From contig CAWFOU010000001.1 of assembly GCA_963817525.1 (NCBI GenBank), positions 928,001 to 992,000 of the forward strand: 64,000 nucleotides of DNA. Direction: 5' to 3'. The notes beneath the pieces were generated by a model. The model saw only the letters and a list, made by a program, of their open reading frames with translations. It ran no database searches and was not told the DNA's origin. The position numbers and the translations under genes were made by a program. This document shows positions 2,559 to 48,168 of the stretch, one piece after another (within the stretch, counting starts at the first letter, position 1; each line of letters opens with the position of its first letter). Source of the stretch: an uncultured archaeon. GTDB taxonomy: Archaea > Thermoproteota > Nitrososphaeria > Nitrososphaerales > Gagatemarchaeaceae.

Positions 2559-3806
2559 TCAGGCGCCACCTCTCGGCGATCCTCCTGCTAATCGCGACGC
2601 GGCCCCCGTCCTCGGCGACGACGGGCTTCTTCAGGTCGAGCTCCGCCACCGTGTCTCGGGCGGAGGTGACCGTCCCCAGCGTGGAGGCGGTCCCGACGTT
2701 GAGCCTGAGCGTCTCGGTCGCCTTCACCTTGTCCACCCTGATGAGCGCGGACGACCCGACGGCCTGGTCGAAGAGCTGGAGGTCGACGGTGATGTGCGTC
2801 CTCACGGGCGGCAGGCTGCCGGGCTTGCCCACGAGATTGCCCACGAGGACGTCGCCCTTTGTGAGGCGAGGGTCGAGGGCGGTCCCAAGGGCGATGAGGC
2901 CTCCGGGGCCTACCTTCTGCGTCATGCCCGCCCCCGTCCCGAGGCTCGCGACCTGGGTGGCGATCGGCGTGAACTTGCCGCTCCTCTCCTCGAGGAGGCC
3001 CGGCGATATCTCGATCTCGTCCCCGACGCTGATCTCCCCGCGCACGAGGCTCCCCCCGAGGACTCCCCCGACGAGGGCCTTTACGTCCGCGCCTGGCCTG
3101 TTGACGTCGAAGCTCCTCAGGATGTACATCTGGGAGGCGGCGGTGAGGTCGTGCTTGGGGGTCGGGATGTTCTCCTCTATGGCCTCTATCAGCGCGTCGA
3201 TGTTGATCCTGTTCTGGGCGGAGACCGGGATGACGGGGGCGTCGGCGCCCACCGTGTTGGCGAGGAACTGCTTGATCGCCTCGTAGTTCTTCTTCGCCCC
3301 CTCGGAGTCCACCCTGTCTATCTTGTTCTGGACCACGACCATCTTCTTCATCCCCAGCATCTGCAGCGCGAGCATGTGCTCCCTGGTCTGTGGCATGGGG
3401 ACGGGCTCGTTGGCGGTGATGACCAGGATGACCCCGTCCATCAGCGCGGCCCCCGCGAGCATGTTGGTCATCAGGCTCTCGTGGCCGGGGCAATCCACGA
3501 AGCTCACCGCACGGAGGAAGTTGGTGGGCTTGCCGCATATTGGGCAGACGGGCGAGGTGGAGTACGCCTCAGGAGGGGGCGTCTCGGGGCACTTGTAAAA
3601 GGCCGCGTCCGCGTACCCGACCTTGATGGTGATCCCCCGCTTAAGCTCCTCGCTGTGGGCGCTCGCCCAGACCCCGGTTATTGCTTGCACGATGGAGGTC
3701 TTCCCACTATCTACGTGACCTGAGTGCCGATGTTGCACTCGGGCTGCTTGGGAATCAGCCGCTGGACCTCTGCGGGCGGCGCGGTCGTGGACTGCTGTTG
3801 GGACAT
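2536..3806 (-). CDS. eif2g: Translation initiation factor aIF2 gamma, frameshift near 3724
   Basis: GHVDSGKT, EELKRGITIKVGYA, DCPGHE, QNKID, WRLIG; the N-terminal QPECNIGT lies in a shifted frame starting at ATG 3806. Confidence 0.93.
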
Positions 3807-3866
3807 TAGGAACGGATTTGCTGACGGCGAGGCTGCGTGTATTTAAGATGTTGAGGTGGACTGAGC

Positions 3867-4208
3867 CTACTGGACCTTCACGGCGTTGAGCTGGTAGACC
3901 TCGTCGTTGATCAGGCCGCCGCGCACTAGCTTCCTCCTCTTCTCCCCCTCCACGGCATTGCGGAAGCCTACGCCCTCGGTCAAGAGGACGTACCTCTTCC
4001 CTCCACCGAGGATGTCGGCGCGCATGGGGAAGCCCGCCTTGTCACTCCCGCCGGTGATCTTGACCTTGTAGTTCTGCCCGACCGGGGTGAGGTCGACGGT
4101 GTCGCCCAGCCGCCTACCCATGAAGAGCAGGGCGGTCGCGTCCTTGGCCTCGAGGACCTCGGACTTGCCGGTCTTGGCGTCGCTTACTACGATTTTGAAC
4201 GCGGGCAA
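3867..4208 (-). CDS. rps6e: 30S ribosomal protein S6e
   Basis: KITGGSDKAGFPMR, GEKRRKLVRG. Confidence 0.95.
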   Translation of the reverse strand: MPAFKIVVSDAKTGKSEVLEAKDATALLFMGRRLGDTVDLTPVGQNYKVKITGGSDKAGFPMRADILGGGKRYVLLTEGVGFRNAVEGEKRRKLVRGGLINDEVYQLNAVKVQ

Positions 4209-4325
4209 CTTTCAACCACTCCCCTTGGGCTCGGTTATTAAGCAGATTGACATTCTGCTTTTCGAGCCGAGACACAGGGTTCGTAGGCGCTTAAATATCA
4301 CGCGAAGGATTGAGGTCTCGTCGAC

Positions 4326-4598
4326 ATGGCCGAGAAGATTCCTGGATGGATAGAGCGGATTCTACTTCCCCAATTGGGTGACATCAAGGGGGAAATCAAG
4401 GCAGTAAACGGCAGGGTCGACCGGCTGACAGGCAAGCTCGAAGCGCTGGAGGGGAGGATGGAGGGAGAGTTCGCCGCAGTTCATTCAGAGATTAGGCGCG
4501 TCGACGAGAAGGTCGGGAACTTCGAAAAAATGCTCAAGCTGGCCGACAGGATGACGGTGGTCGAGAGCAGGGTCTCTACCCTGGAATCGCTCAAGTGA
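4326..4598 (+). CDS. Small coiled-coil hypothetical protein
   Basis: 90 aa with heptad pattern; TTAAATA TATA-like box upstream. Confidence 0.65.
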   Translation: MAEKIPGWIERILLPQLGDIKGEIKAVNGRVDRLTGKLEALEGRMEGEFAAVHSEIRRVDEKVGNFEKMLKLADRMTVVESRVSTLESLK

Positions 4599-4605
4599 GC
4601 CGCGA

Positions 4606-7600
4606 CTAAAAGCCGTAGAGCATGTCCTTCGCGGAGCGGATGGCGACTATCTCTTCGAGGGCCTGCAGGTCGTCCGGGGAGAGGGTGGACGCGTACTTGC
4701 CCTTTAGGATCTTCGCGTCGTGGCTCGTGGGGATCGAGTAGAGGTCCTCGTCCTCCTTGATCGTCCTGCCGAGGGTGGGGCCCTTCACCGAGATGGCCAC
4801 CTGCATACCCTTCCCGGCCTCCGCGATGTTCTTGCCGTTCTCCTGGATCTGCTCGACCACTCCCACCTCCTCCCCCTTCTGGTTCATCAGCCGCACCTTG
4901 GGGCGTAGCCGCCCCGCGAGGACCTCGACCCCGAAGACCGCGGGGTCGTTCCTCCTGAAGAAGTTCCCCTTCAGGGCCTTCACCTTGGCGGGCATCGTCA
5001 CGCTCTGGAGCGCGGTCCTCTCGTCCTCCTCCTTCTCCTTCGCGGCCCACTGGACGTATCCCTCGACCGCGTCGTAGATGACCTCGGAAGTGATTATCTG
5101 GACGCGCTCCGCGCTCTCCTTCGCCTCGGGGAGGACCTTGACGTCGAACCCGATTATCGCGCCCAGGTATGGGTCGCGCTCGGCGACCGCCTCGGCCTCG
5201 ATTATCTCCGCCTTGGAGATGTCCCCGATGTCCGCTAGGCGGACGGGGATGGCCCGCTCCTCGAGCATCTTGAGGAGCGCCTCCAGGCCCCCGATGCTCC
5301 CCGCCTTGACGACGACCCCGACGCTGTCGCTCTTCCGCCTCAGGGTGCTCAGGTCCTTCTCGAGGTCTGTCTTCAGCGTCGCGAACTCGGCCTCGTCCCG
5401 GAAGGTCATGACCGCGGTCCCCGGGATGACCCCCTCGAGGTCGGGGCTGACCAGCTTGACTCCGGCGGCGGCGTAGACCTCTTCCACGGCGGTGAACTTG
5501 TCCCTCGGGTCGCGCATCTCGTCGAGGGGCTTGGGCATGAAGAGTGCCTTGACCTTGGTCTGCGCGGCCCCGTCGCGCTTCACTATCACTATCTTGTCGC
5601 CCACGTGGAGGGTCCCGTCGGTGAGGATGATGTTCGCGGTCTGCCCCATCCCGACCTCCTCCTGGAGCTCGAGGACTATGCCCTTCGACCTCCCCGAGAC
5701 GTCGGCCGCGCCCTGGGCGAGCTTGGTGGTCAGGAACTGCTGGGCGAGCCCGATGAGGACGGCGAGGAGCTCGGGGATGCCCACGCCGTACCTCGCTGAG
5801 ACGGGGACTATCGAGACCTGCTTGCGAAAGTCCTTGATGCGATAGAAGGCCTCCGCCTGGAAGCCAGCCCTGGAGAGCCCGCCGACGACGTTGTAGAGGC
5901 GCTCCTCGAGCTCGTCGTTCCACTCAGGGGGCTGCAGCTTGAGAGCGGCGGACAGCGCGATGCTCCCCTTGCCCGTCACGGTGTCCTTTCGCCAGCCCCT
6001 TATCATGTCCACCTTGTTGAGGGCGACCAGGAAGGGGACGTGCCTCTCCTTGAGTATCTCGATGCTCTCCATCGTCTGGTTCTCGAGGCCCTTCAGGACG
6101 TCGACCAGGAGGATGGCGATGTCAGCGGCAGAGCCGCCGCGCATCCTCAGGTTGGAGAAGACCTCGTGCCCCGGCGTGTCGATGACGAGCAGGCCCGGGA
6201 TCTTCAGCGAGCCCCCCGTTTTCGAGAGAAGGGGGCCGCATATCGCCTCGAGTGTCTCCATCGGGAAGAAGCTGGCGCCGATCTCCTGGGTGATCCCGCC
6301 CGCCTCGCGGGCCTGGACCCCCGTCCCTCTTATTTTGTCGAGAAGAGATGTGTTGTGGATTATCAGGCTGTTGCCAAGGAAGTTGTGATAGTCGTCGACC
6401 GTGAAGTCGTAGACGTCGCATGCCCCTTCGATCACCTGCAAGCCCGAGACTTGGACGCTGGCGTAGTTGTTGATGGTCTCGACGAGAGCCTTGCTGTCGT
6501 AGCCGGGGAGCGCTTGGGGGAGGTGCCTTACGACGTCCCGGCTTATCTTCGAGCGCGTCTGAAAGGTGCTGATCTGGAAGTGCTCGTCCCAGTTGACCCT
6601 CTGACCTTCCCTGATCTTCCTTAGGAACTCACCGGGTATGGGGGTGATGTCGAAGACCCGGTTCGTCTCGGATGTCTGCGTCTTGATCTTTGCTGCCAGC
6701 ATCTTCTCTTTTTCCCCAAAGCCGATCTGGTCGACGAAAGCCCTGACGTTGTCCCTCCCGCTGATGAATACCTCTCTGCTATGGCCGCCCTTCCCGAAAT
6801 AGGCCAGGCAGCCGAACCTCGCGAGCAGCATCGGCAGTTGCCTCATCAGCTCCGCGCCCTCGCACCCGACCCCGATGTTCCTCCCTTCCTGGACGAAACC
6901 TTCCGCGTCGAAGAATCCGCGGAGGAACTTTGCGACGACGGGATCCGGCATCATCGAGATGGTGTCCGGGACGTGGATTGACCTGCTCTTGTCAGCCGTC
7001 GGATAGTCGAAGACCTCCACGAGGAACCGGTGAAGCGACTTGCCACCCTTGTGGCTCACGATGAAGCTCGTCCGGCGCCATGCCTTGCTCGCTCCCACGC
7101 CAAAGGGCAGTTCGAGGTTGATGAGGAAAAGGTCCATCAAGTAAGTGGACGTGTTGGCAAGGTACCCAGATTCCGCGACGCCGTCCCCGAAAAGCAGGCC
7201 GACGAGATACGCTAGGGCCTCGAATCCCTTCTCGTCCTTTGGCACCGCTATCCACGGTGATCGGTGGGAGGCGCGTCTCTTTCGAGAGGCGAACTTCACG
7301 CCTTCGACTTGGTCGTAGGCGTCGGCCAGGGAGATCCCCACCTCCTTGACCGCGTTCCGAAACACGCTCGCTCTGAAGTATCCTTGCTCGAGGTGAAAGA
7401 TGAACTGGGAGTCCCCGAGGTCCTTCCCAACCCTTTGCCTTCGTCCGTTCGAGAAGGCGACCAGCTTGGCTACGAGAGGTTGGGAGGCTCTGACCAGGAA
7501 ATCGTCGGAGAGTCTGGCCAGGATCCTCGACTTGACGGCCTCTAGCCCGTTTGAGGTGACGTTGACCCTCGCGGGGATCACAAGGTGGTCGCCTAGCGAC

Positions 7601-7989
7601 AGACGCTGGGCTTCTACATAGGAGAGCTCCCCGTTGGCAGACATGGCGAGGAACTTGTGCTCGGGGGTGCACCTGACGGCGTAGCCTGCTTTGGTCGTGA
7701 CCTCGATAAGCCGGTCGGCCCTGAGCTTCCAGACGTGCGACGCTCGTTTGGCTATGACCCTACCTTCCGGCGAGGTCGATAGTAGTTCCAAACCCTTCGC
7801 TTCGAAGGAGACGCCGTCTGGTCTTTCGATAGGTTGGCCTGACTTGAATTCCTGGAAGAGCGCGTCCGCCCTGGCCACCCTACCGTCCGCAAGTTGGATG
7901 AGAGTGTCAGCGCTGACGCACTTGCCGGCATCCGTGTGCCCCAGCACGACTACGACTGGTTGTCGGAGTTTTTGTTCTGACTGGGACAT
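4606..7989 (-). CDS. infB: Translation initiation factor aIF5B (IF2), intein-containing
   Basis: LRQPVVVVLGHTDAGK|intein|TSLLDKIRGT, EAGGITQEIGA, IDTPGHE, NKVD. Confidence 0.96.
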   Translation of the reverse strand: MSQSEQKLRQPVVVVLGHTDAGKCVSADTLIQLADGRVARADALFQEFKSGQPIERPDGVSFEAKGLELLSTSPEGRVIAKRASHVWKLRADRLIEVTTKAGYAVRCTPEHKFLAMSANGELSYVEAQRLSLGDHLVIPARVNVTSNGLEAVKSRILARLSDDFLVRASQPLVAKLVAFSNGRRQRVGKDLGDSQFIFHLEQGYFRASVFRNAVKEVGISLADAYDQVEGVKFASRKRRASHRSPWIAVPKDEKGFEALAYLVGLLFGDGVAESGYLANTSTYLMDLFLINLELPFGVGASKAWRRTSFIVSHKGGKSLHRFLVEVFDYPTADKSRSIHVPDTISMMPDPVVAKFLRGFFDAEGFVQEGRNIGVGCEGAELMRQLPMLLARFGCLAYFGKGGHSREVFISGRDNVRAFVDQIGFGEKEKMLAAKIKTQTSETNRVFDITPIPGEFLRKIREGQRVNWDEHFQISTFQTRSKISRDVVRHLPQALPGYDSKALVETINNYASVQVSGLQVIEGACDVYDFTVDDYHNFLGNSLIIHNTSLLDKIRGTGVQAREAGGITQEIGASFFPMETLEAICGPLLSKTGGSLKIPGLLVIDTPGHEVFSNLRMRGGSAADIAILLVDVLKGLENQTMESIEILKERHVPFLVALNKVDMIRGWRKDTVTGKGSIALSAALKLQPPEWNDELEERLYNVVGGLSRAGFQAEAFYRIKDFRKQVSIVPVSARYGVGIPELLAVLIGLAQQFLTTKLAQGAADVSGRSKGIVLELQEEVGMGQTANIILTDGTLHVGDKIVIVKRDGAAQTKVKALFMPKPLDEMRDPRDKFTAVEEVYAAAGVKLVSPDLEGVIPGTAVMTFRDEAEFATLKTDLEKDLSTLRRKSDSVGVVVKAGSIGGLEALLKMLEERAIPVRLADIGDISKAEIIEAEAVAERDPYLGAIIGFDVKVLPEAKESAERVQIITSEVIYDAVEGYVQWAAKEKEEDERTALQSVTMPAKVKALKGNFFRRNDPAVFGVEVLAGRLRPKVRLMNQKGEEVGVVEQIQENGKNIAEAGKGMQVAISVKGPTLGRTIKEDEDLYSIPTSHDAKILKGKYASTLSPDDLQALEEIVAIRSAKDMLYGF
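6352..7920 (-). mobile_element. Intein (523 aa) with LAGLIDADG homing endonuclease in the aIF5B P-loop
   Basis: Starts CVSADT, block B TPEHKF, ends VYDFTV...HNFLGNSLIIHN followed by T; LVGLLFGDG and FLRGFFDAEG motifs. Confidence 0.95.
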
Positions 7990-36739: not shown

Positions 36740-36971
36740 CTACCTCCCTGCCCTCTCCGTCGAGAACCATGCGAGGCCTCCTAACGAACACGAATAAACC
36801 TGAAAGCCGACGTGGCCGCCGGGACGAAGCAGAGAGGGGTTAATCCAGTGAGAAAACCGGTGCAAAATTCAATATGGTTGGACCTGGTGGATATCCTCCC
36901 CTGACAACGGCGAGATTTTGAAGGCGGACATGGCTATATTCCCTTCCCTGCGGCGCCAGCGATAGGGGAGA

Positions 36972-37028
36972 GGCGCCGGCGACGAGATTTGAACTCGCAA
37001 GCCCTTTCGAGCGGCAGCTTTCCAGGCT
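36972..37028 (+). repeat. att site (copy of the tRNA-Ser 3' part)
   Basis: GGCGCCGGCGACGAGATTTGAACTCGCAAGCCCTTTCGAGCGGCAGCTTTCCAGGCT, identical to 48017-48073. Confidence 0.95.
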
Positions 37029-37924
37029 CTGTTAGCCCAGTTGGAGACCCCATCGACTGGGCGGCCTTCAAACAGTGGCTAGACGCTCAATACTCACCCA
37101 AACACGCGAGGCAAGTCTTCTCCCGCGCCGTCACCTACCACGAGGCCGCCACGGATGCAGCGAAGGCGGCTCAGCTGAAGGCGCTGTCCAAAGACAAGAG
37201 GCGGCTGATCATGGAAGGCTTAGCGGCTTATGCCAAGTTCAGCGGCACCTACGAGATATGGCAGAGCGTACGAAGGCAAGCCGGCTTGAAGTGGGGGCAG
37301 AGCGACCCTCTGAAGGTCATAAACGCCCTCGTAAGCGGAGAGGCGACCCACGCTCTCGAATGGCTGAACGAGGTAGCGGCAAGATTGCCCGTTCCCTATC
37401 GCGTCGTGCTGGTATTCGCCGCGCTAACCGGTCTAAGACCCACCGAGGCAGCGAACTCCTGCGCCCTAATCTATGAGCTATCCTCAAAGGGACAGCTAGC
37501 GGACTACTATGACGCAGACCTCAAGATGCTCCAGCACTTCAAGTACCCTAAGGTCTTCTTGCGCCGCACGAAGAACGCATACATCACCTTCGTCGGCCCG
37601 CGACTGATTGAGGCAGTGGCATCGATGGAGCCTGTCGCATTTAGCACGGTGTCAAAGGCGATTAGGTCGCATCTTGGCATGCAGGTGCAGGCGAAGAACT
37701 TGCGCAAGCATTATGCGACGTTTCTACGCAAGTACCTGGAGCAAGAGATGATAGATTTGGTACAAGGACGCGTGGGCTCGAGCGTCTTCGCCAAGCACTA
37801 CTATAGGCCCCTGATTATGGAGTTACGTGACCGGGTCCTTACCGCACTCAAGCCGCTGGAAGACGACCTAGTGCCGCTTCTGGCGATAGAACCTTCAAGA
37901 ATTGAAGGAAGCATTCAACCCTAG
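36989..37924 (+). CDS. int: SSV1-type tyrosine integrase, C-terminal fragment (intC)
   Basis: TGLRPTE, RTKNA, KNLRK, QGR and KHYY catalytic motifs; frame begins inside the att repeat. Confidence 0.9.
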   Translation: MNSQALSSGSFPGSVSPVGDPIDWAAFKQWLDAQYSPKHARQVFSRAVTYHEAATDAAKAAQLKALSKDKRRLIMEGLAAYAKFSGTYEIWQSVRRQAGLKWGQSDPLKVINALVSGEATHALEWLNEVAARLPVPYRVVLVFAALTGLRPTEAANSCALIYELSSKGQLADYYDADLKMLQHFKYPKVFLRRTKNAYITFVGPRLIEAVASMEPVAFSTVSKAIRSHLGMQVQAKNLRKHYATFLRKYLEQEMIDLVQGRVGSSVFAKHYYRPLIMELRDRVLTALKPLEDDLVPLLAIEPSRIEGSIQP

Positions 37925-39480: not shown

Positions 39481-40131
39481 CTATTCCAAGCCTCTAGCTC
39501 GCTTCTTGCGGAGAAATTCTCCGAGTGCGAGGATCAAGTGTTCAAACCGCCGCATTAACTCCAGTACCTCACCTGGTTGCAGAGATATTTCTTCATCCAG
39601 GACCTTGGCCGCTCCATCTTTCTCAACTATCACAATTCGTCCTGCGGGGGCTTGCCATAGGCTGCTAGGCGTTTGTTTCCATTTGAGAAAGAACCTAAAG
39701 GACAGCGCCTTGTCCTTCTTGATGGCGTCATGTTTTATTTCCTCAGAGTATAGAATTGCAAGCAGGACCTTGACATTCAACCTAACACGGCTTAAGACAA
39801 AGCTCCGCTCGAGGTCAACGCTGCCGGTTACGAGGACATCGCTCTTTAGCAACTCCTCGTAGAAAATTGGCACCCTTATGTTGTAGAGCCTGTGACTTTT
39901 TCCCACATTTACTCTGACGGAATACCTCAGGGTGCTCCGAGATGTGGCCTTCTTGAGCGTCTTGGGTGTATCGATAGGAAAATTGATGTCGTCGGTATTT
40001 CTCGAGAGCGGGATATCTTCCAGAACTCTACCACAATTCTCGCACACTAACTCCGCTTCGTCAGGGGATGAAGCGAAATCATAAGCGAAGATGCTTCCAT
40101 GCCCACAATCAGGACAGATACGATCTTTCAT
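39481..40131 (-). CDS. TFIIB-type Zn-ribbon protein
   Basis: CPDCG...YD...ELVCENCGRVLED. Confidence 0.65.
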   Translation of the reverse strand: MKDRICPDCGHGSIFAYDFASSPDEAELVCENCGRVLEDIPLSRNTDDINFPIDTPKTLKKATSRSTLRYSVRVNVGKSHRLYNIRVPIFYEELLKSDVLVTGSVDLERSFVLSRVRLNVKVLLAILYSEEIKHDAIKKDKALSFRFFLKWKQTPSSLWQAPAGRIVIVEKDGAAKVLDEEISLQPGEVLELMRRFEHLILALGEFLRKKRARGLE

Positions 40132-41673: not shown

Positions 41674-42999
41674 TTGACAACAAAGTTACCGGCCCCTAGC
41701 AACGAGGTTCCTCCTGCCAATAAAAGCTCACCAGGGTTTCTCTCGTTCATGCAACGCCAAGAGCAAGCAAGGCAACCGACGCCTACAAAAGTGCCGATGA
41801 CTACTGGCGGCACAAAAGTCGGGAACAGTAGCGCGAAAGGAAGGGCACCCCCCTCGAATCCGGCCTCGGAGATTTCTTGTCCGATATGCGGATCTGAGGT
41901 CACCAAAGCCATGTTGCCCGACGGCCTCGACGACGACGCACTAGTCCTCCTCCACGACCACGTCCATGCAGGAAACCTCGTTCCAATGTTGGAGCTGGCC
42001 GACATCGTTTCCAGACACCTCGACCCGTCCAAAATCGGACCTGAGATTCAAATCAAGGACTACCTCGCGAAACTGTCACAAGCTGCAAGGACCGTCCTCG
42101 AGAAGCAAGTCGAATTCTTCCAAAGCACGACCAGGGAGGAGAAGGAAGACAAAGCAGCCATGCTGGAAAAAGCCCTCAAGGAGCAGCGAGACCTCGTAAA
42201 GCAATACGAGGATGAGATGAAGGGAATCCAAGAACAACAGCTCCGACAAGTCGAATCATTCAACGAGGCCATCGCTGACATCAGGGAGAAGCTAGTCGGC
42301 ACAGGGATCGGCAAAGTGACGGAGGTCGTGACCATCAAAGAGCTGAAGTCAGCCTTCCCGCAAGACACGTTCACCAACTCCAAAGCCTCACGAGGCATGG
42401 CCGACATTGTCGCCACCGTAAGGGAGGACGGATCGGATTCGGGCAAGGTCGTGATCAGCGTGAAGAACGAAGCACGCTGGGGGGAAGAGTTCATCGACCA
42501 GCTGAGGCGGAATCTCCAGGACGAGGGTGCGAAGTGGGGCATCCTTGTGACACGGGTATTCCCGGCTGACGCGCTCAATGACAAGATGACCCTTTCCCAA
42601 GAGGGGTTCTTCCTGGTCAAGCCCGAATATGCCCCAATAGCTTACCAAGCCATGAGACAGGCGGCAATACAGTGGCACGCAGCCCAACGATGGGTCAGCG
42701 ACAGAGAAGAGCAACTCCAACTGAACGAGAAGATCACGGAGGTAATCCGGCAATGGATCCGTGGAGACAACTTCAGCCAAATCATCAGGTCGATAGACAA
42801 CGCCGTCAACGAAAGTCGTCAGACCGATGAGCTTCTCGTCCAGTTCTACAGATACGCAGAGCGCAAGGTCGCAGAAATGAGGAAAGTTCAAACTGCGCTC
42901 CGAGAATCGCTGATCAAAGGAAGCGACCTCCTGGGAGAACTGAAGCAAGGACTCGAGTCTGCCCAAGTGAGCAGAACCGTTTCCACGAGGGACAAGTGA
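41674..42999 (+). CDS. Coiled-coil / DUF2130-like PD-(D/E)XK-fold protein
   Basis: Coiled coils flank ADIVATV...VVISVKN...W...FIDQL...GILVT; start uncertain. Confidence 0.65.
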   Translation: MTTKLPAPSNEVPPANKSSPGFLSFMQRQEQARQPTPTKVPMTTGGTKVGNSSAKGRAPPSNPASEISCPICGSEVTKAMLPDGLDDDALVLLHDHVHAGNLVPMLELADIVSRHLDPSKIGPEIQIKDYLAKLSQAARTVLEKQVEFFQSTTREEKEDKAAMLEKALKEQRDLVKQYEDEMKGIQEQQLRQVESFNEAIADIREKLVGTGIGKVTEVVTIKELKSAFPQDTFTNSKASRGMADIVATVREDGSDSGKVVISVKNEARWGEEFIDQLRRNLQDEGAKWGILVTRVFPADALNDKMTLSQEGFFLVKPEYAPIAYQAMRQAAIQWHAAQRWVSDREEQLQLNEKITEVIRQWIRGDNFSQIIRSIDNAVNESRQTDELLVQFYRYAERKVAEMRKVQTALRESLIKGSDLLGELKQGLESAQVSRTVSTRDK

Positions 43000-43056: not shown

Positions 43057-44091
43057 TCAAGTTGAATCATGTAGTCGAGGCCTTGCCTCAGTTGACTTCA
43101 AGAAAGATTCGCCCCCATTTGTGAGGACGTATGAAACTCGTGTTCCATCCTGTACCCTATGGACAAGTCCTAACTCGTCCAGTCTGCCAATCACGCCAGC
43201 GCGAGTCGGGGCAAGCATGGAATCTTGAAGGCTCGGAAGAAATTTCTTCAATGTTTTATCAACAGCGTCTGGAGTATCCTTTCCGTCCGTTATCCCCTCA
43301 ATTATTAGACGGGAAAGCTCCCATTCACGCGGAAGGGTCTTTTTCACGCAACTCATGTAGAACTGTGCTTCTTCCTCAGATAGCGTACCTTCGGCCTTTT
43401 CCCACTCACCATCGAGTACAGGGTTTCTCAACTTGGCGAAGTTGAAACCATCTCTAGTTAGAGACGCTTCAGGATGTCCATTCTTCCTCTCGAGAAGGAC
43501 GAATCTCAATGCTACAGGGAACCCGCCTATGCGTCCCTTGTTGCTCATGGTGCCCACGAACATATTTTTGAATCGTTCTAGAGCTTTGTCTCCTCGTCGG
43601 ACTGGTAGTCCGGTCGCGAATCTTTCACCACGACTGAGCTTCCGGTTCTTGTCTGCCACGAGAAGGTGCTTACCGATGGTTCTTGCCCGCAGCGCTGATT
43701 CCTCACGAAGGACCTTCAAATCAATCGATTTGCTATCGTTCGACAGGAGAAGTTGAGACAGTGCACGCAAGGTAATTTTAACTGGAAAAATCCGATTGTA
43801 GAGGCCCCAAATTATTTCATCGGGGTCAGCTTTCTGAATCGATTGCGCTAGCGCAGGTTCTTCGGTTGGCGCTTTAAGTGAAAGCGGACCGCTGATATCC
43901 GCGGTTCGCGGTACGTCGTCCAATTGATTTCTGGAACCCGCATCCGTACTCTCTTGAGGGGCAAGTTCGAGCTCGATTTGGTTTTGTATTGCGACCGTTA
44001 TGAATTGAGCAACCGAAGAATATCGATGCTCTCGAAGCAGCTCCTGAATTTTCTCCCAGACTTCTGGATCTAAATCAATAATGTGTCGCAT
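43057..44091 (-). CDS. Protein with RHH-like N-terminus and wHTH C-terminus
   Basis: IIDLDPEVWEKIQELL...YSSVAQFITVAI; GRLDELGLV...YVLTNGG. Confidence 0.65.
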   Translation of the reverse strand: MRHIIDLDPEVWEKIQELLREHRYSSVAQFITVAIQNQIELELAPQESTDAGSRNQLDDVPRTADISGPLSLKAPTEEPALAQSIQKADPDEIIWGLYNRIFPVKITLRALSQLLLSNDSKSIDLKVLREESALRARTIGKHLLVADKNRKLSRGERFATGLPVRRGDKALERFKNMFVGTMSNKGRIGGFPVALRFVLLERKNGHPEASLTRDGFNFAKLRNPVLDGEWEKAEGTLSEEEAQFYMSCVKKTLPREWELSRLIIEGITDGKDTPDAVDKTLKKFLPSLQDSMLAPTRAGVIGRLDELGLVHRVQDGTRVSYVLTNGGESFLKSTEARPRLHDST

Positions 44092-44324
44092 GCTGCACCG
44101 TGGTGGTACAGTAAAACCTTATTAAGAGTTTACCCACTCTATCTGGCGTTAGGCGTGGTCAAGCTTAGATTAAGGGGGACTAAATGTGACCAAATGAGCA
44201 GTAAATACACTCGAGCTTGCACTCGAGAGTCTGACAATCCTCTTCGTCGACGTGAAGAAAGCACCGAGGGGAAGTGGCTAGTCCAATCGTTAATACACGG
44301 CGATGACCAACAACGACACGGGGC

Positions 44325-44930
44325 ATGAAGGGTGGAATAACGAATCGCGATATCTGCCTCTACGCCCTAATCAACGTGGGAGGAGACGTCGGCTATGTCG
44401 CGACGGAAGACGTTGCCGTAAAAGCCTTCGAGATCTATCCACAGCGCTTTGGCCTCATTCGCCACCCAAAATATCCCGACGTGGATTCGGTGCGAGTTAC
44501 TCTGACGGACCTTCGAAAGGAGAAATATGGATCTCTTGTAGAAGGTAACAAGAAAAGAGGTTGGCGCGTTAGTTCCAGCGGAACTAGTTTGATTGCCGAA
44601 AATCGCATTATAGTCCAGAAGGCACTCAAGGATAAGTTACCGGAAGAGCGCAGAATCTCGAGTGGAGTCCGCTTAACAAGCGAAAAGGTGCGGTCGACAA
44701 GGTTAAGCCGCATCCTGAGGTCTGAGGCGTTTGCGAAGTGGAAGAAAGGAGTAGAGCCATCAGTCTATGATTTCTATGATGTGATGAGAGTTGACGACTA
44801 CACTCCGGAAAGCACCTATCGGGAGCACCTTAAGGCGCTGACCGATGTAGTTCCCGACAACGCCGAAGTCAGGAAGTTCCTGTCAGAAATTGACCGGATG
44901 TATGGGGAGAGCTACCGCCATCATGGCTGA
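44325..44930 (+). CDS. HTH-like hypothetical protein coupled to the ATPase
   Basis: TEDVAVKAFEIYPQRF...VRVTLTDL...GWRVSSSG; stop overlaps the ATPase start. Confidence 0.7.
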   Translation: MKGGITNRDICLYALINVGGDVGYVATEDVAVKAFEIYPQRFGLIRHPKYPDVDSVRVTLTDLRKEKYGSLVEGNKKRGWRVSSSGTSLIAENRIIVQKALKDKLPEERRISSGVRLTSEKVRSTRLSRILRSEAFAKWKKGVEPSVYDFYDVMRVDDYTPESTYREHLKALTDVVPDNAEVRKFLSEIDRMYGESYRHHG

Positions 44931-46656
44931 GCATGAGCTTTACGCTCGTAGTGACGTAGGCCGGGACATACTCCAAAATTCTACATATTTCTCCAGCGTC
45001 CCAAAGGCGTTGAACGAATACGTATGGAACTCGATTGATTATTGCAAGATGAACAAGAGCGTCGAAGTAAAAGTAGCAAAACATGCTGGCAAGATTAAGA
45101 TTCGCAAAAAGGGGACTCGCAAGTACAATGGCATAGTGGTCGAGGAGATAAGAAATGGAGGAGGCATGTCTCGAGAAGACCTTGTGAGATTCTTTACAAT
45201 GCACGGAGAGACTCTCGCACGCAAGGAGGGAAGGCACGTAAGAGGGCGGTTCGGAACGGGAAAGGCCGCAGCATTTGGAATTGGTAACGTACTCATTATT
45301 GACACCGTCAAGAACGGAAAAAGGAACGTGGTTAGACTTGGGAAGGATCAACTGACCCCAGGACTTGACAGGGTTCCGATTGAGCCGCTCTTGACCGAAG
45401 CCCAAGTGGATCTCCCTGATGGGACAACGGTGATAATCGACAAGCTGATTGTCAAACGAGTTAAGGTCGAATCGGTCAAGAAGTTCTTGACGAGGTCATT
45501 AGGAATGCAACTGCGAACGCACGACGTCATAGTCGAAGGCGAGAAGCTCGAATACTCTCAACCTGAGTATGACAAGGAATGGTCTTTCAACTGCCCATTA
45601 GCTCTGAAGGAGGAATTGGGCGAAGTTGCATTGAAGCTTCGACTATCAAAGAGAGAGTTAGAACAAGAGGAGGGTGGTGTGGCAATACTCTCCTCCGGAT
45701 ACCCTATGGAGTTCTATGATTCTACAAAGATGGGTTCGTGGTCGTCCAGGCTTTTCGGAGAGGTAGACGTGCCGCTGCTGGATTCCGACGATGAAATTCC
45801 CACCTTCGATAATACTAGGAGCAAGCTGAACAGGGACAACCAGAGAGTGACTCACCTGCTTCGGTGGATTGACGAAAAAGTGGCTGAAGCAGTGACCGAT
45901 TTAGAAGCGGAAGCAAGAGCCAAAATAACCAAGGCAGAAACTCAAAAACTCGAGGTAATCGCCAATGAGCTCGCCGATTTGCTTAACGATGATTTCTCAG
46001 ATATCATCACCGAACTTGAATCCAAGCCGCTGATTGGAGGAACCGGGCAGCTCGAGTCCGGAATCGAAGAAAGAAAAGAAGGAATCATTACTCTCATCAA
46101 AGACAATATGGGAGAAACAAGAGTCACCTTGGATGGTGACGGGAACGTAATCGTACTAGACGCGCCCGACGGAGATGGTCCTGGAAAAAAGACACCCCGG
46201 GTGCCTCATGAGCCTCACAATCCGCATGAACCCCCCGAACCCAAAACACCCGAGGAACTCCATCGAGGAAACCTATCCGAAGTTGGTGACTCGGCACGAG
46301 AGACGGATACCGCCGGTGAGAAACGAAAACACAGAGGCGGGTTCAAGATAGACTATGTGCATGAAGGGCCTGATGCTTTTCGAGCCAGATGGGTGAGAGA
46401 GGAGATGACAATTAAGCTGAACATGGATTATCCTGAGCTTAGTATCTTCAATGACATAGAGGACGCCCGCTTCAAGGCTCTATCTGGTGAGCTTGCGATC
46501 GCCGAATACGCAATTGCCGCGGTTAACTTGGAAGTGGAGAACGGTTACGTCGACGTCAGCAACACAGCAAGTGATGCGCTAATCGAATATCGAAGAATCA
46601 TTACGAGACTCGGAAAAAAGATCGCCCCGCTAATGCAGCGCTGGTTCAATTCCTGA
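44923..46656 (+). CDS. GHKL (MORC/MutL-like) ATPase
   Basis: ALNEYVWNSID, NGGGMS, GRFGTGK, GTTVII motifs; S5-like segment RLFGEVDVP. Confidence 0.85.
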   Translation: MAEHELYARSDVGRDILQNSTYFSSVPKALNEYVWNSIDYCKMNKSVEVKVAKHAGKIKIRKKGTRKYNGIVVEEIRNGGGMSREDLVRFFTMHGETLARKEGRHVRGRFGTGKAAAFGIGNVLIIDTVKNGKRNVVRLGKDQLTPGLDRVPIEPLLTEAQVDLPDGTTVIIDKLIVKRVKVESVKKFLTRSLGMQLRTHDVIVEGEKLEYSQPEYDKEWSFNCPLALKEELGEVALKLRLSKRELEQEEGGVAILSSGYPMEFYDSTKMGSWSSRLFGEVDVPLLDSDDEIPTFDNTRSKLNRDNQRVTHLLRWIDEKVAEAVTDLEAEARAKITKAETQKLEVIANELADLLNDDFSDIITELESKPLIGGTGQLESGIEERKEGIITLIKDNMGETRVTLDGDGNVIVLDAPDGDGPGKKTPRVPHEPHNPHEPPEPKTPEELHRGNLSEVGDSARETDTAGEKRKHRGGFKIDYVHEGPDAFRARWVREEMTIKLNMDYPELSIFNDIEDARFKALSGELAIAEYAIAAVNLEVENGYVDVSNTASDALIEYRRIITRLGKKIAPLMQRWFNS

Positions 46657-46697
46657 GCAAGGCGAGTTAATTAGGGAAGTCTAATTCAAATTTCGAC

Positions 46698-46856
46698 ATG
46701 GGTGGATTGGGCGAGTGCCCCTGTTGCAAGCAGTGGAAGGAGCTCACTGAGCATCATGTCAAGGAAGCAGGCAACCAAAAAGTGATGATCTGTTTAGATT
46801 GTCACCAAAGGATAGAAGAGTATCTCAAGATACTCGTCAAGCTGCGAAGCAAATAA
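46698..46856 (+). CDS. 52-aa HNH-like Zn-finger microprotein (below the ORF-track cut-off)
   Basis: MGGLGECPCCKQWKELTEHHVKEAGNQKVMICLDCHQRIEEYLKILVKLRSK. Confidence 0.65.
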   Translation: MGGLGECPCCKQWKELTEHHVKEAGNQKVMICLDCHQRIEEYLKILVKLRSK

Positions 46857-46933: not shown

Positions 46934-47455
46934 TCACTGCATTGGTACGACGATGATCTGCCAGTTGGCGTTGGCGGAGAGTACTGCCACATAGTAGTTT
47001 TGGCCTGGCGTTAGGCCATATCCGAAGCTGCTTGATTGCCCGGTCTGTGCGTTGACATCGCCTTGTGCCACGTAGACCTGGCTGCCCACCGGATAGACAT
47101 ACCAGCTAACCCCGCTGTAAGAGACCGCACTGCTCGAGACGTTCATGCTCACTTTGATGGTTGAAGTGGTCGCCGTAAATGGCGGGCTGTTGGCGTTGCC
47201 TGAGCCGTTGTAATTTACTAGTGCCGTCCCCGCACTCAGACTGGTGACGGTAGACACAACAGAAGTTGTCTTCGTTACAGTGACGGTCGAAGCTTGGGCG
47301 GCAGTACTCGCCTGAGAGCCTTGGCTGCCCACCGTCTGGGTAACCGTTCTTGTCGCCGTCTGACCTGAACTGCCGCCGCTTGTCGCTGCGGCGCCTATGC
47401 CAGCCCCAATTATGAGAGCTACGATCGCCACCCCAATTGCTACAAACGTCTTCAT
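46934..47455 (-). CDS. Membrane-anchored S/T-rich surface protein
   Basis: N-terminal TM, T/S-rich stalk, beta-rich C-domain ending ANWQIIV. Confidence 0.7.
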   Translation of the reverse strand: MKTFVAIGVAIVALIIGAGIGAAATSGGSSGQTATRTVTQTVGSQGSQASTAAQASTVTVTKTTSVVSTVTSLSAGTALVNYNGSGNANSPPFTATTSTIKVSMNVSSSAVSYSGVSWYVYPVGSQVYVAQGDVNAQTGQSSSFGYGLTPGQNYYVAVLSANANWQIIVVPMQ

Positions 47456-47572: not shown

Positions 47573-47728
47573 ATGGTCAAGTGATACAGGAACGTGAGCA
47601 TACCTGAAGAGCTGTATCTTGAACTGGAGAAGCTCGTGAAGTCAAACAAAGCTGGGTATGTCAGCGTGTCCGATGCGGTCAAAGACTGTGTTAGAGAGCT
47701 TCTGAGGAAGCACAAAATGCTGCCCTAA
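47573..47728 (+). pseudogene. CopG/RHH protein with in-frame TGA at codon 4
   Basis: MVK*YRNVSIPEELYLELEKLVKSNKAGYVSVSDAVKDCVRELL. Confidence 0.65.
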
Positions 47729-47781: not shown

Positions 47782-48168
47782 ATGTCCGACTGGCGAACTG
47801 TCGGGGTAAGGCTCAAGGAGGAAGACGTTGCGCAGCTGAACCAACGTCTCAAACAGCTTGGTTATGGCTCTCTAAACGAGTTTGTGGGCGGGATCACGAA
47901 AGGGGTTGTAACCAACAAGCAGATTGTGGATGAGCTGGCTGAGGCAGTGGCAGACAGGATTGTTAACAAATTGTTAAACAGTCCGTTGGGCAAAGAGCCC
48001 AATCTGGGTGAGGAGTGGCGCCGGCGACGAGATTTGAACTCGCAAGCCCTTTCGAGCGGCAGCTTTCCAGGCTGCTGGGTTACCAGGTTACCCATACGCC
48101 GGCCCGGCCGTGTCGCCAGTGATTTTACCGTATATCGACTTTGCGTATCCGTCGAACAAGGGCTTTAA
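47782..48168 (+). CDS. int: Integrase N-terminal fragment (intN) with RHH-like start
   Basis: Reads WRRRRDLNSQALSSGSFPG through the att repeat in the same frame as intC. Confidence 0.85.
   Translation: MSDWRTVGVRLKEEDVAQLNQRLKQLGYGSLNEFVGGITKGVVTNKQIVDELAEAVADRIVNKLLNSPLGKEPNLGEEWRRRRDLNSQALSSGSFPGCWVTRLPIRRPGRVASDFTVYRLCVSVEQGL
48016..48103 (-). tRNA. tRNA-Ser(GGA)
   Basis: GCCGGCG acceptor stem, anticodon arm GCAGC-CTGGAAA-GCTGC, long variable arm, GTTCAAATC T-loop, encoded CCA. Confidence 0.95.
48017..48073 (+). repeat. att site within the intact tRNA-Ser
   Basis: Identical to 36972-37028. Confidence 0.95.

Follow-up and report, generated by a model that had tools for sequence, protein, structure and literature searches.

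A conserved winged-helix and GHL ATPase gene pair with a variable third gene, found in an 11-kb integrated element of a Nitrososphaeria archaeon

Which of the genes that stand side by side in a low-GC island of an uncultured archaeon belong together, and what might they do? The island lies in a 64,000-nucleotide (nt) stretch of contig CAWFOU010000001.1 (assembly GCA_963817525.1, positions 928,001 to 992,000; class Nitrososphaeria, family Gagatemarchaeaceae), which is called the window below and supplies the coordinates of its genes. A sequence-only reading of four neighbouring open reading frames (ORFs) had proposed an undescribed, methylase-free defence module made up of a helix-turn-helix (HTH) protein, a GHKL ATPase of MORC type, a micro-HNH protein, and a divergently transcribed protein with ribbon-helix-helix (RHH) and winged HTH (wHTH) parts. 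The four ORFs are where it placed them, the 344-aa (amino acid) gene is divergent, and the HTH-like gene does overlap the ATPase gene by 8 nt. The unit that recurs in other genomes is smaller. The winged-helix and ATPase genes are near-obligate, overlapping neighbours, and form a conserved, uncharacterised pair. We take the pair to be an accessory, horizontally spread module that normally follows a variable third gene and is most likely a conflict module (for defence or for protection of an element), a reading to which we give about an even chance. As part of the same reading, at the same strength, the functional unit would be a translationally coupled pair of a winged-helix protein of about 200 aa and a GHL ATPase of about 550 aa. 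The genes concerned are these:

41674 to 42999, forward strand: 441-aa DUF2130 protein (PF09903, 60.4 bits against a cut-off of 26.7), candidate third component
43057 to 44091, reverse strand: 344-aa protein of no known family, divergent from the pair and an occasional neighbour of it
44325 to 44930, forward strand: 201-aa winged-helix protein, conserved partner of the ATPase
44923 to 46656, forward strand: 577-aa GHL (MORC/Hsp90/GyrB-like) ATPase, starting at ATG 44923 (PF13589)
46698 to 46856, forward strand: 52-aa CxxC-HH-CxxCH zinc-finger ORF, putatively a minimal HNH-like protein, 41 nt after the ATPase gene (gap at 46657 to 46697)

The pairing was assessed at 145 ATPase loci, 65 of them from species genomes and 80 on metagenome contigs kept from 203 relatives found. 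These loci came from alignment-based searches (a single-protein search of genome contigs had returned none), the 65 species-genome loci from an alignment-based pattern scan of one genome per species across 185,579 species. Eleven metagenome contigs, L066 to L076, encode ATPases 37-65% identical to that of the window. A homologue of the 201-aa protein is encoded directly upstream, on the same strand, at 114 of the 137 loci with a called ATPase ORF; 7 of the remaining 23 have less than 620 nt of upstream DNA. The median gap between the two genes is -4 nt, with 80 pairs overlapping, 32 within 60 nt, and 2 within 300 nt. Over all 145 loci, single-query tblastn finds the 201-aa homologue at 99 and a profile search at 121. 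In the window, the stop of the winged-helix gene and the start of the ATPase gene share the 8 nt ATGGCTGA (44923-44930). A mechanical ORF call from TTG 44890 would give an ATPase of 588 aa; the start at ATG 44923 agrees with the N-termini of homologues. The suggestion that the ATPase has a separate DNA-binding subunit is thus borne out in the sense of gene pairing. Fused forms of the 201-aa protein were not found among longer proteins, which is weak evidence, and a complex prediction for the ATPase (A1) with the 201-aa protein (A3) scored 0.02 against a mark of 0.32 and is counted neither for nor against binding.

The ATPase is, as had been read from its sequence, a GHKL protein with no obvious fused nuclease. 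PF13589 (HATPase_c_3) matches residues 37-153 only, at 47.2 bits against a cut-off of 25, and no nuclease domain is found in the protein by Pfam, PADLOC, or NCBIfam. Its structural model (predicted local distance difference test, pLDDT, 77.2) would consist of a Bergerat fold plus transducer (about residues 1-300), a long helix (307-367), a disordered linker (370-471), and a small beta-beta-beta-alpha-alpha C-terminal domain (472-577) that has invariant residues and matches no recognised family. The best Foldseek match is MORC2 (9cdh_A, E 3.6e-12), followed by TRAP1/Hsp90, MORC3/4, and GyrB (the matches include 6xg6_B, E 4.8e-12, 7k7t_B, and 4pu9). About 370-450 columns align to MORC2, TRAP1, Hsp90, and GyrB N+M with E from 1e-10 to 1e-12, which supports the S5-like transducer. 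A sequence profile search of PDB reaches only the N-terminal 50-75 residues or so (the Bergerat region) of MutL and Hsp90, at E of about 3e-3. The resemblance to eukaryotic MORC2/3/4, Hsp90/TRAP1, and the N-terminal modules of GyrB concerns residues 1 to about 400, for which these are the best structural matches, and it extends to the long helix after the transducer, which is like the MORC coiled coils. Unlike MORC2, Hsp90, and GyrB, to which it is 12-16% identical, the ATPase has no CW, chromo, or client-binding domains, and its C-terminal domain is unrelated to theirs by sequence. The family has at least 247 homologues at E<=0.001 among 7,999 scored candidates. Most are about 545 aa long, and no extra Pfam domain was found in the longer relatives of 676-780 aa.

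The 201-aa protein had been called HTH-like, and its model, which is confident (pLDDT 87.8), agrees: it is predicted to be an N-terminal winged helix (about residues 1-117) followed by a C-terminal helical bundle. The best VIA-align match of residues 1-117, the N-terminal wHTH to which the comparison is limited (the helical bundle lies beyond it), is F-93 of the fusellovirus SSV1 (Z 10.1, root-mean-square deviation 3.0, 86 aligned residues); the Rio2 winged helix (Z 9.6) and MarR-type proteins (Z 8-9) come next. Foldseek returns generic wHTH matches only, none at E<=1e-3, and no Pfam, NCBIfam, PADLOC, or PHROG family covers the protein. In the ESM Atlas, both unknown proteins fall into unnamed "hypothetical protein" clusters.

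What stands upstream of the pair varies from lineage to lineage. At 97 bacterial loci, neighbour-ORF clustering shows the winged-helix gene to be immediately preceded, on its own strand, by the gene for a protein of about 649 aa (L131 1272-3221 and L080 312-2252 are examples, with 95 further loci). Pfam finds RNA_pol_A_CTD domains (two stretches in L131) and Sigma70_r4 domains in it. A five-member profile matches only sigma region 4 and RNA polymerase alpha-subunit C-terminal domain (alpha-CTD) chains in PDB, and therefore some 400 C-terminal residues are without assignment. Judged by these domains, the protein could mimic RNA polymerase. Neither the window nor L066-L076 has it, as checked with a 30-sequence subset of the 50 cluster-3 proteins of 560-720 aa. 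In five of the contigs closest to the window, a protein of 163-168 aa with a strongly basic middle, matching no known family and absent from the window, takes the third-gene position:

L066 192-683, L068 489-995, L069 3526-4032, L070 546-1052, and L074 3-173: the 163-168-aa protein

A HARE-HTH protein is the third gene in L004. In L072, L075, and L076, the gene just before the pair encodes a DUF2130 protein (PF09903, 36-42 bits against the same cut-off of 26.7). The DUF2130 protein of the window, whose gene lies just outside the coordinates covered by the sequence-only reading and was missed by it together with the bacterial third gene of about 649 aa, has an N-terminal CxxC, a coiled coil, and a PD-(D/E)xK-like region with a match to Mrr_cat (E 0.0018) that falls below the cut-off of that model. 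Its D244 and K264 are conserved, and a sequence search of PDB gave no significant match. In L071, a 50-aa ORF (5669-5821) between a 347-aa gene and the winged-helix gene matches the DUF2130 N-terminus (E 6.5e-5) and is apparently the remnant of a lost DUF2130 gene. The upstream DUF2130 gene is the likeliest nuclease partner of the pair in this lineage, though only weakly linked to it. A common origin of the third genes was considered and rejected (hhalign gives probabilities of 0.1-1.3% among the 649-aa, DUF2130, 344-aa, 168-aa, and 201-aa families).

We regard the pair as accessory and horizontally spread because its distribution is patchy, because no full-length member of the ATPase family was found in 300 other genomes of the host class, and because in the window it sits in a low-GC island bounded by attachment (att) repeats. 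Most of the 65 species-genome loci belong to Chloroflexota and Poribacteria, with single records in Actinomycetes, Bacillota, Vicinamibacterales, Bacteroidales, and Spirochaetales, and one on a Bathyarchaeia contig. The 300 genomes of the host class yield only N-terminal matches (up to position 329 of the 548 in the model) in other GHKL proteins of about 550-820 aa. The island itself (GC 0.49-0.56, against 0.62-0.67 in its flanks) is delimited as follows:

36967 to 37028, no strand: left att repeat, a 62-nt direct repeat 98% identical to 48012-48073
36989 to 37924, forward strand: C-terminal part of an SSV-type (partitioning) integrase (PF16795, 32.9 bits against a cut-off of 27)
47782 to 48168, forward strand: ORF with the N-terminal part of the split integrase, running into the att repeat and the tRNA gene
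48012 to 48073, no strand: right att repeat, within the 3' part of the tRNA-Ser gene
48016 to 48103, reverse strand: tRNA-Ser(gga), the integration target (ARAGORN)

The integrase ORF at 36989 also matches phrog_5127 (integrase, E 2.3e-10) and begins inside the left repeat. A 12-residue peptide, NSQALSSGSFPG, is encoded by att and common to the start of this ORF and the ORF at 47782-48168. Integration has split the int gene, with att lying inside both the gene and the tRNA, a textbook case of the SSV-type partitioning signature. With the att repeats in tRNA-Ser, the split gene identifies the island as an 11-kb integrated element (11,045 nt from repeat to repeat), so the tRNA-integrated element that had been proposed is there.

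The defence role is one that we infer from genomic context. Among 52 sampled loci, about 21 have a neighbour of defence or mobility type, judged by Pfam names. The neighbours counted are Eco57I and N6_N4 methylases, integrases and transposases, HsdR, DndB, SIR2_2, AbiEii, Schlafen-AlbA_2, PIN, HNH_2, Fic, STAND NTPases, and a phage portal protein. The element carries no methyltransferase family among the 14 island ORFs scanned with Pfam, as the sequence-only reading had it; yet DNA methylases adjoin the operon in at least eight relatives (L034, L050, L057, L099, L100, L113, L070, and L071). In L070, a Vsr-Dcm fusion (562 aa, 3800-5488) adjoins the pair and is followed by an 882-aa ORF (5041-7689) with two GHKL domains (HATPase_c_3 and HATPase_c), and the locus looks like a restriction-modification (R-M) locus of MORC/paraMORC type. 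Neighbours in other close relatives include an Eco57I/TaqI-type methylase (L071), an SbcCD-like pair (L066), and an HNH_5 protein (L069). As to mechanism, we infer complex formation, clamp action, and a part for DUF2130. The ATPase would be a dimeric, nucleotide-gated clamp that reaches DNA through the winged-helix subunit, its small C-terminal domain would probably mediate dimerisation, and the variable upstream protein would supply target sensing, cleavage, or both. In this archaeal genome DUF2130 would be the candidate third gene and the whole set the cargo of the 11-kb element.

Several findings weigh against a conflict module of this kind. The neighbour sample (52 loci with 114 flanking proteins, not de-replicated) is a count without a matched background control, and about 31 of its 52 loci lie among housekeeping genes, with synteny kept within lineages. 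The ATPase family was not found in 50,697 phage records, nor in IMG/VR by pattern scan, and 72,556 plasmids gave one distant partial match, 25.8% identical. Neither a recognisable nuclease universal to the module nor a catalytic domain in the bacterial third gene was found by Pfam, PDB profile, or PADLOC. In the clade of the window ATPase, the G1-box residue is Arg or Lys, and ATP binding may thus be altered or lost. Between the DUF2130 gene of the window and the pair stands the 344-aa gene, in inverted orientation; the DUF2130 product is 24% identical to the DUF2130 protein of L072 over 151 aa (E 3.9e-7), and at the putative active site it has S-V-K (residues 262-264) in place of the E-V-K of three relatives.

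Part of this evidence suits a cellular function in DNA or transcription outside conflict, such as MORC-like compaction, silencing, or promoter remodelling, with the archaeal copy a transferred version. This is the alternative that survives best, and we consider it unlikely. The housekeeping neighbours, with their conserved synteny (fumarase with a solute-binding protein; Metallophos with Peptidase_S49, in Phototrophicaceae and Poribacteria), are as compatible with a cellular role as with one in conflict, and the RNA-polymerase-type domains of the third gene and the lack of a universal effector domain speak for it too. A cellular function sits less well with a family met at 65 loci in 185,579 species and in full length in none of the 300 class relatives, with a third gene replaced by proteins that hhalign finds unrelated (probabilities of 0.1-0.2 between the 649-aa, DUF2130, 344-aa, and 168-aa families), with defence or mobile genes next to about 21 of 52 loci, and with a module that in the window is the cargo of an integrative element.

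That last fact raises a second alternative, which we think somewhat less probable again: the pair would serve the element itself, by silencing its genes while it is integrated, by excluding related elements, or in replication or segregation after excision. The pair does lie inside an att-bounded element of SSV type in which several small genes are RHH/HTH-like and Pfam and PHROG scans recognise no virion genes, and the best match of its winged helix is a fusellovirus protein, SSV1 F-93, a resemblance at the level of the fold only. PHROG matches in the element are limited to the integrase, the N-terminus of the ATPase (to an unnamed family), and an RHH-like ORF of 44 aa. Against a role in element maintenance, most relatives are not in recognisable mobile elements, the family was not found in the phage and IMG/VR collections and barely in plasmids, and the other genes of the element were found at none of the 145 ATPase loci. 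The 44-aa RHH-like ORF (47594-47728; phrog_38461, E 3e-5) sits between the integrase N-terminal fragment and the gene of a Ser/Thr-rich 173-aa protein (46934-47455, reverse strand) that is predicted to be a membrane or secreted protein. A 216-aa protein (39481-40131, reverse strand) carries a zinc ribbon of TFIIB type at its N-terminus (PF08271, 33.7 bits against a cut-off of 29) and may serve the element as a transcription factor of its own.

A bolder version of the conflict reading, which we hold to be doubtful, would make the locus an undescribed three-component MORC-like immune system, with the winged-helix protein and the ATPase as constant engine and the upstream protein as exchangeable sensor or effector. 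The bacterial sensor, with its two alpha-CTD parts and its sigma region 4, would be a decoy that detects phage proteins hijacking the host polymerase. In archaeal mobile elements, a DUF2130 nuclease would have taken the place of this sensor, and the archaeal change of the G1-box Asp to Lys or Arg would have altered the contact with the nucleotide base, possibly from ATP to GTP.

No named system accounts for the module by PADLOC v2, Pfam, or NCBIfam, and PADLOC gives no full match, as had been expected. PADLOC v2 on the window returns a weak match of REase_II PDLC03485 to the ATPase N-terminus (E 2.6e-5) and nothing for the other window proteins. A description of the winged-helix/GHKL pair or of this operon was not found in the literature searched, supplementary tables being outside its reach. 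The nearest precedent is that of the prokaryotic MORC/paraMORC ATPases, predicted components of R-M-type systems (Iyer, Abhiman & Aravind 2008, PMC2292703). The operons described there include helicases, nucleases, and methylases, and about 70% of the MORC neighbourhoods have a superfamily II helicase (PMC2292703). The family shares with these ATPases a module of GHKL domain and S5-like transducer with a lineage-specific C-terminal extension, a patchy, horizontally transferred distribution, and occasional methylase, Vsr, and HNH neighbours. It differs from MORC operons in its constant partner, the winged-helix protein of about 200 aa, a partner that the available portion of that account does not mention (paraMORC was compared by description only). 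Helicases are a further difference: a helicase-type neighbour (HsdR, L089) occurs at only 1 of the 52 sampled loci, and the element has no superfamily II helicase by Pfam scan. We would place the module with the known MORC/paraMORC conflict modules, as a variant among them.

Two systems with an N-terminal GHL ATPase, a conflict context, and a proposed dimeric clamp resemble the module in these respects. Tiamat joins the ATPase to DUF3684 and a C-terminal NOV_C/DUF3883 nuclease (bioRxiv 10.64898/2026.09.30.754977), and GHKL-Shedu (VcSduA) joins a GHKL N-terminus to a C-terminal DUF4263 domain of PD-(D/E)xK type (PMC12137116). By these accounts, Tiamat and VcSduA are single genes with a fused PD-(D/E)xK nuclease, unlike the multi-gene module described here. 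The Pfam scan of the window ATPase finds neither DUF3684 nor NOV_C/DUF3883 at E<=0.1, and Pfam finds no DUF4263 in it.

For the N-terminal 200 residues or so of the ATPase, the closest annotated family is that of the BbrUII/HgiDII restriction enzymes (NCBIfam NF050001, E 3.2e-13); the match covers positions 18-220 of a 659-position model and scores 49.1 bits against a cut-off of 550, which places the ATPase outside that family. Mza is a five-gene set (MzaA-E) with Z1-domain and further ATPase genes, which are not seen in this operon. By PADLOC, the partner of about 649 aa matches MzaA over about 60 HTH residues (E 1.8e-4 to 8.1e-4) and one bacterial ATPase matches MzaB over about 100 N-terminal residues (E 5.6e-6); these matches of relatives are to single generic domains, and no window protein matches an Mza model at E<=0.1. 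In PglW of type 2 BREX, an RNA polymerase alpha-CTD-like domain is followed by wHTH modules (PMC12839542). The bacterial protein of about 649 aa likewise combines alpha-CTD-like and HTH modules, and the PADLOC PglW model matches that part of it (E 9.2e-8). Type 2 BREX differs from the module in that no kinase or other BREX genes accompany the latter, and the PglW-like protein is absent from the window.

Whether the window copy still works turns on its nucleotide-binding motifs. The G1-box Asp contacts adenine in GHKL enzymes. In the window the box reads R-N-G-G-G-M, with Arg in place of Asp at residue 77 and the glycines kept. Among the 209 family sequences that could be anchored at this position (48 of 257 could not), 188 have Asp, 17 Lys, and 4 Arg; the corresponding hmmalign column agrees, with 227 Asp, 18 Lys, 4 Arg, and 8 gaps in 257. 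All Lys and Arg cases fall within the close clade of the window protein (21 sequences); the change is noted in the window protein and in L066, L068-L070, and P0002-P0021. The substitution suggests, therefore, that this clade has lost ATP binding or changed its nucleotide preference. The N-box (ExxxN) is intact, with E32 and N36 invariant in the 18-sequence alignments A1 and A2, and it is found by pattern in 214 of 257 family sequences. The G2 box (GxxGxG) is intact as well, G108, G111, T112, G113, and K114 being invariant in A1. That everything else in the clade is conserved argues against decay. A decaying or catalytically silent cargo, in which the window copy would be a pseudo-enzyme that neither hydrolyses ATP nor cuts DNA, is accordingly improbable. 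It would explain the change from Asp to Arg, the change from E-x-K to S-x-K in DUF2130, and an upstream gene order that departs from that of L075 and L072 and has the 344-aa gene turned round. Opposed to this, the Lys or Arg is present in all 21 anchored members of the clade, which are 44-70% identical to the window protein with their frames intact, and all window ORFs are intact; a substitution shared in this way, together with invariant N-box and G2-box residues, indicates selection rather than decay.

The two other genes of the original four turn out to be neighbours of the pair rather than parts of it. The 52-aa ORF carries the CxxC-HH-CxxCH motif reported for it, and the motif is real and conserved in its family: in an alignment of 22 sequences, conservation reaches at least 90% at C7, C10, H19, H20, C32, C35, and H36. 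The conserved Asn of HNH proteins was not found in this alignment, no Pfam HNH model matches the ORF at E<=0.1, and the NCBIfam model HlpB matches it at E 0.059 (13.8 bits against a cut-off of 130). To judge from its motif, the protein is a minimal HNH-like zinc finger and a putative nuclease. Matches at E<=0.01 occur in 36 of the 300 other host-class genomes (33 of 297 without three weak matches in genomes flagged as unpublished), the best of them intact and 50-70% identical, and 29 cluster representatives, mostly of 50-110 aa, are found at E<=1e-3 among 1.84 billion proteins. A homologue was found at 0 of the 145 ATPase loci, and the 1.5 kb on either side of each of the nine best homologues is free of ATPase, winged-helix, and DUF2130 genes. 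The 52-aa ORF is a real small-gene family and an independent neighbour of the pair; its proposed role as a tiny nuclease or zinc adaptor partnering the ATPase is not supported by these counts.

For the 344-aa protein, no Pfam, NCBIfam, PADLOC, or PHROG match was found, and the RHH reading reflects the look of its N-terminus only. Homologues occur near the pair at 3 of the 145 loci (L071, L072, and L075), all in one subclade; there they lie upstream on the strand of the pair and are not divergent. Among the closest relatives by ATPase identity (L066-L070 and L074), no homologue was found in L069, which has about 4 kb of upstream DNA, or in the roughly 0.1-1.1 kb upstream in L066, L067, L068, L070, and L074. 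The central region of the protein (about residues 85-310) recurs in proteins of about 409-419 aa in 17 of the 300 class genomes, which lack this ATPase. The 344-aa gene is not a constant partner of the pair. Of the proposal that three or four genes would be conserved as a neighbourhood, the winged-helix/ATPase pair therefore stands, the 52-aa ORF falls away, and the 344-aa gene is weakly associated at best.

The relatives of about 409-419 aa (L171-L180, for example L174 1108-2337 and L178 2355-3482) are recurrently found with a divergent gene of about 185 aa that has weak PIN-like matches, and in L178 the relative adjoins a GmrSD_C nuclease gene. The two genes may form a separate two-gene conflict module, and the 344-aa protein may have a part of its own in conflict loci, as a protein that recognises DNA. 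In the ESM Atlas, its FokI/AlwI-type rows score 0.75-0.77, under the threshold for a lead.

A four-gene system of RHH-wHTH protein, HTH protein, ATPase, and micro-HNH, with the 52-aa protein as nuclease or zinc adaptor, is thus the least probable explanation of all: the adjacency of the genes in the window, the shared strand and 41-nt gap of the ATPase gene and the 52-aa ORF, the conserved motif, and the recurrence of the 344-aa gene in three relatives are outweighed by the missing 52-aa homologues, by the 36 class genomes that have the 52-aa ORF and yield no full-length member of the ATPase family, by the unconserved HNH Asn, and by the absence of the 344-aa gene from 142 of 145 loci.

GHKL and MORC ATPases link bacterial conflict systems to eukaryotic gene silencing, and laboratory studies of prokaryotic versions are, to our knowledge, very few. 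Compact, well conserved, and so far unnamed, and with a third gene that can be swapped, the pair is a convenient subject for work on the targeting of a MORC-like clamp and on the events that such a clamp sets off. At the bacterial loci, the RNA-polymerase-like domains of the third gene suggest an idea about sensing that can be tested, and a clade that has lost the adenine-contacting Asp offers a natural experiment in the use of nucleotides. Should the pair have no conflict role, the locus would still hold a caution, as two of the four genes grouped by adjacency did not belong together.

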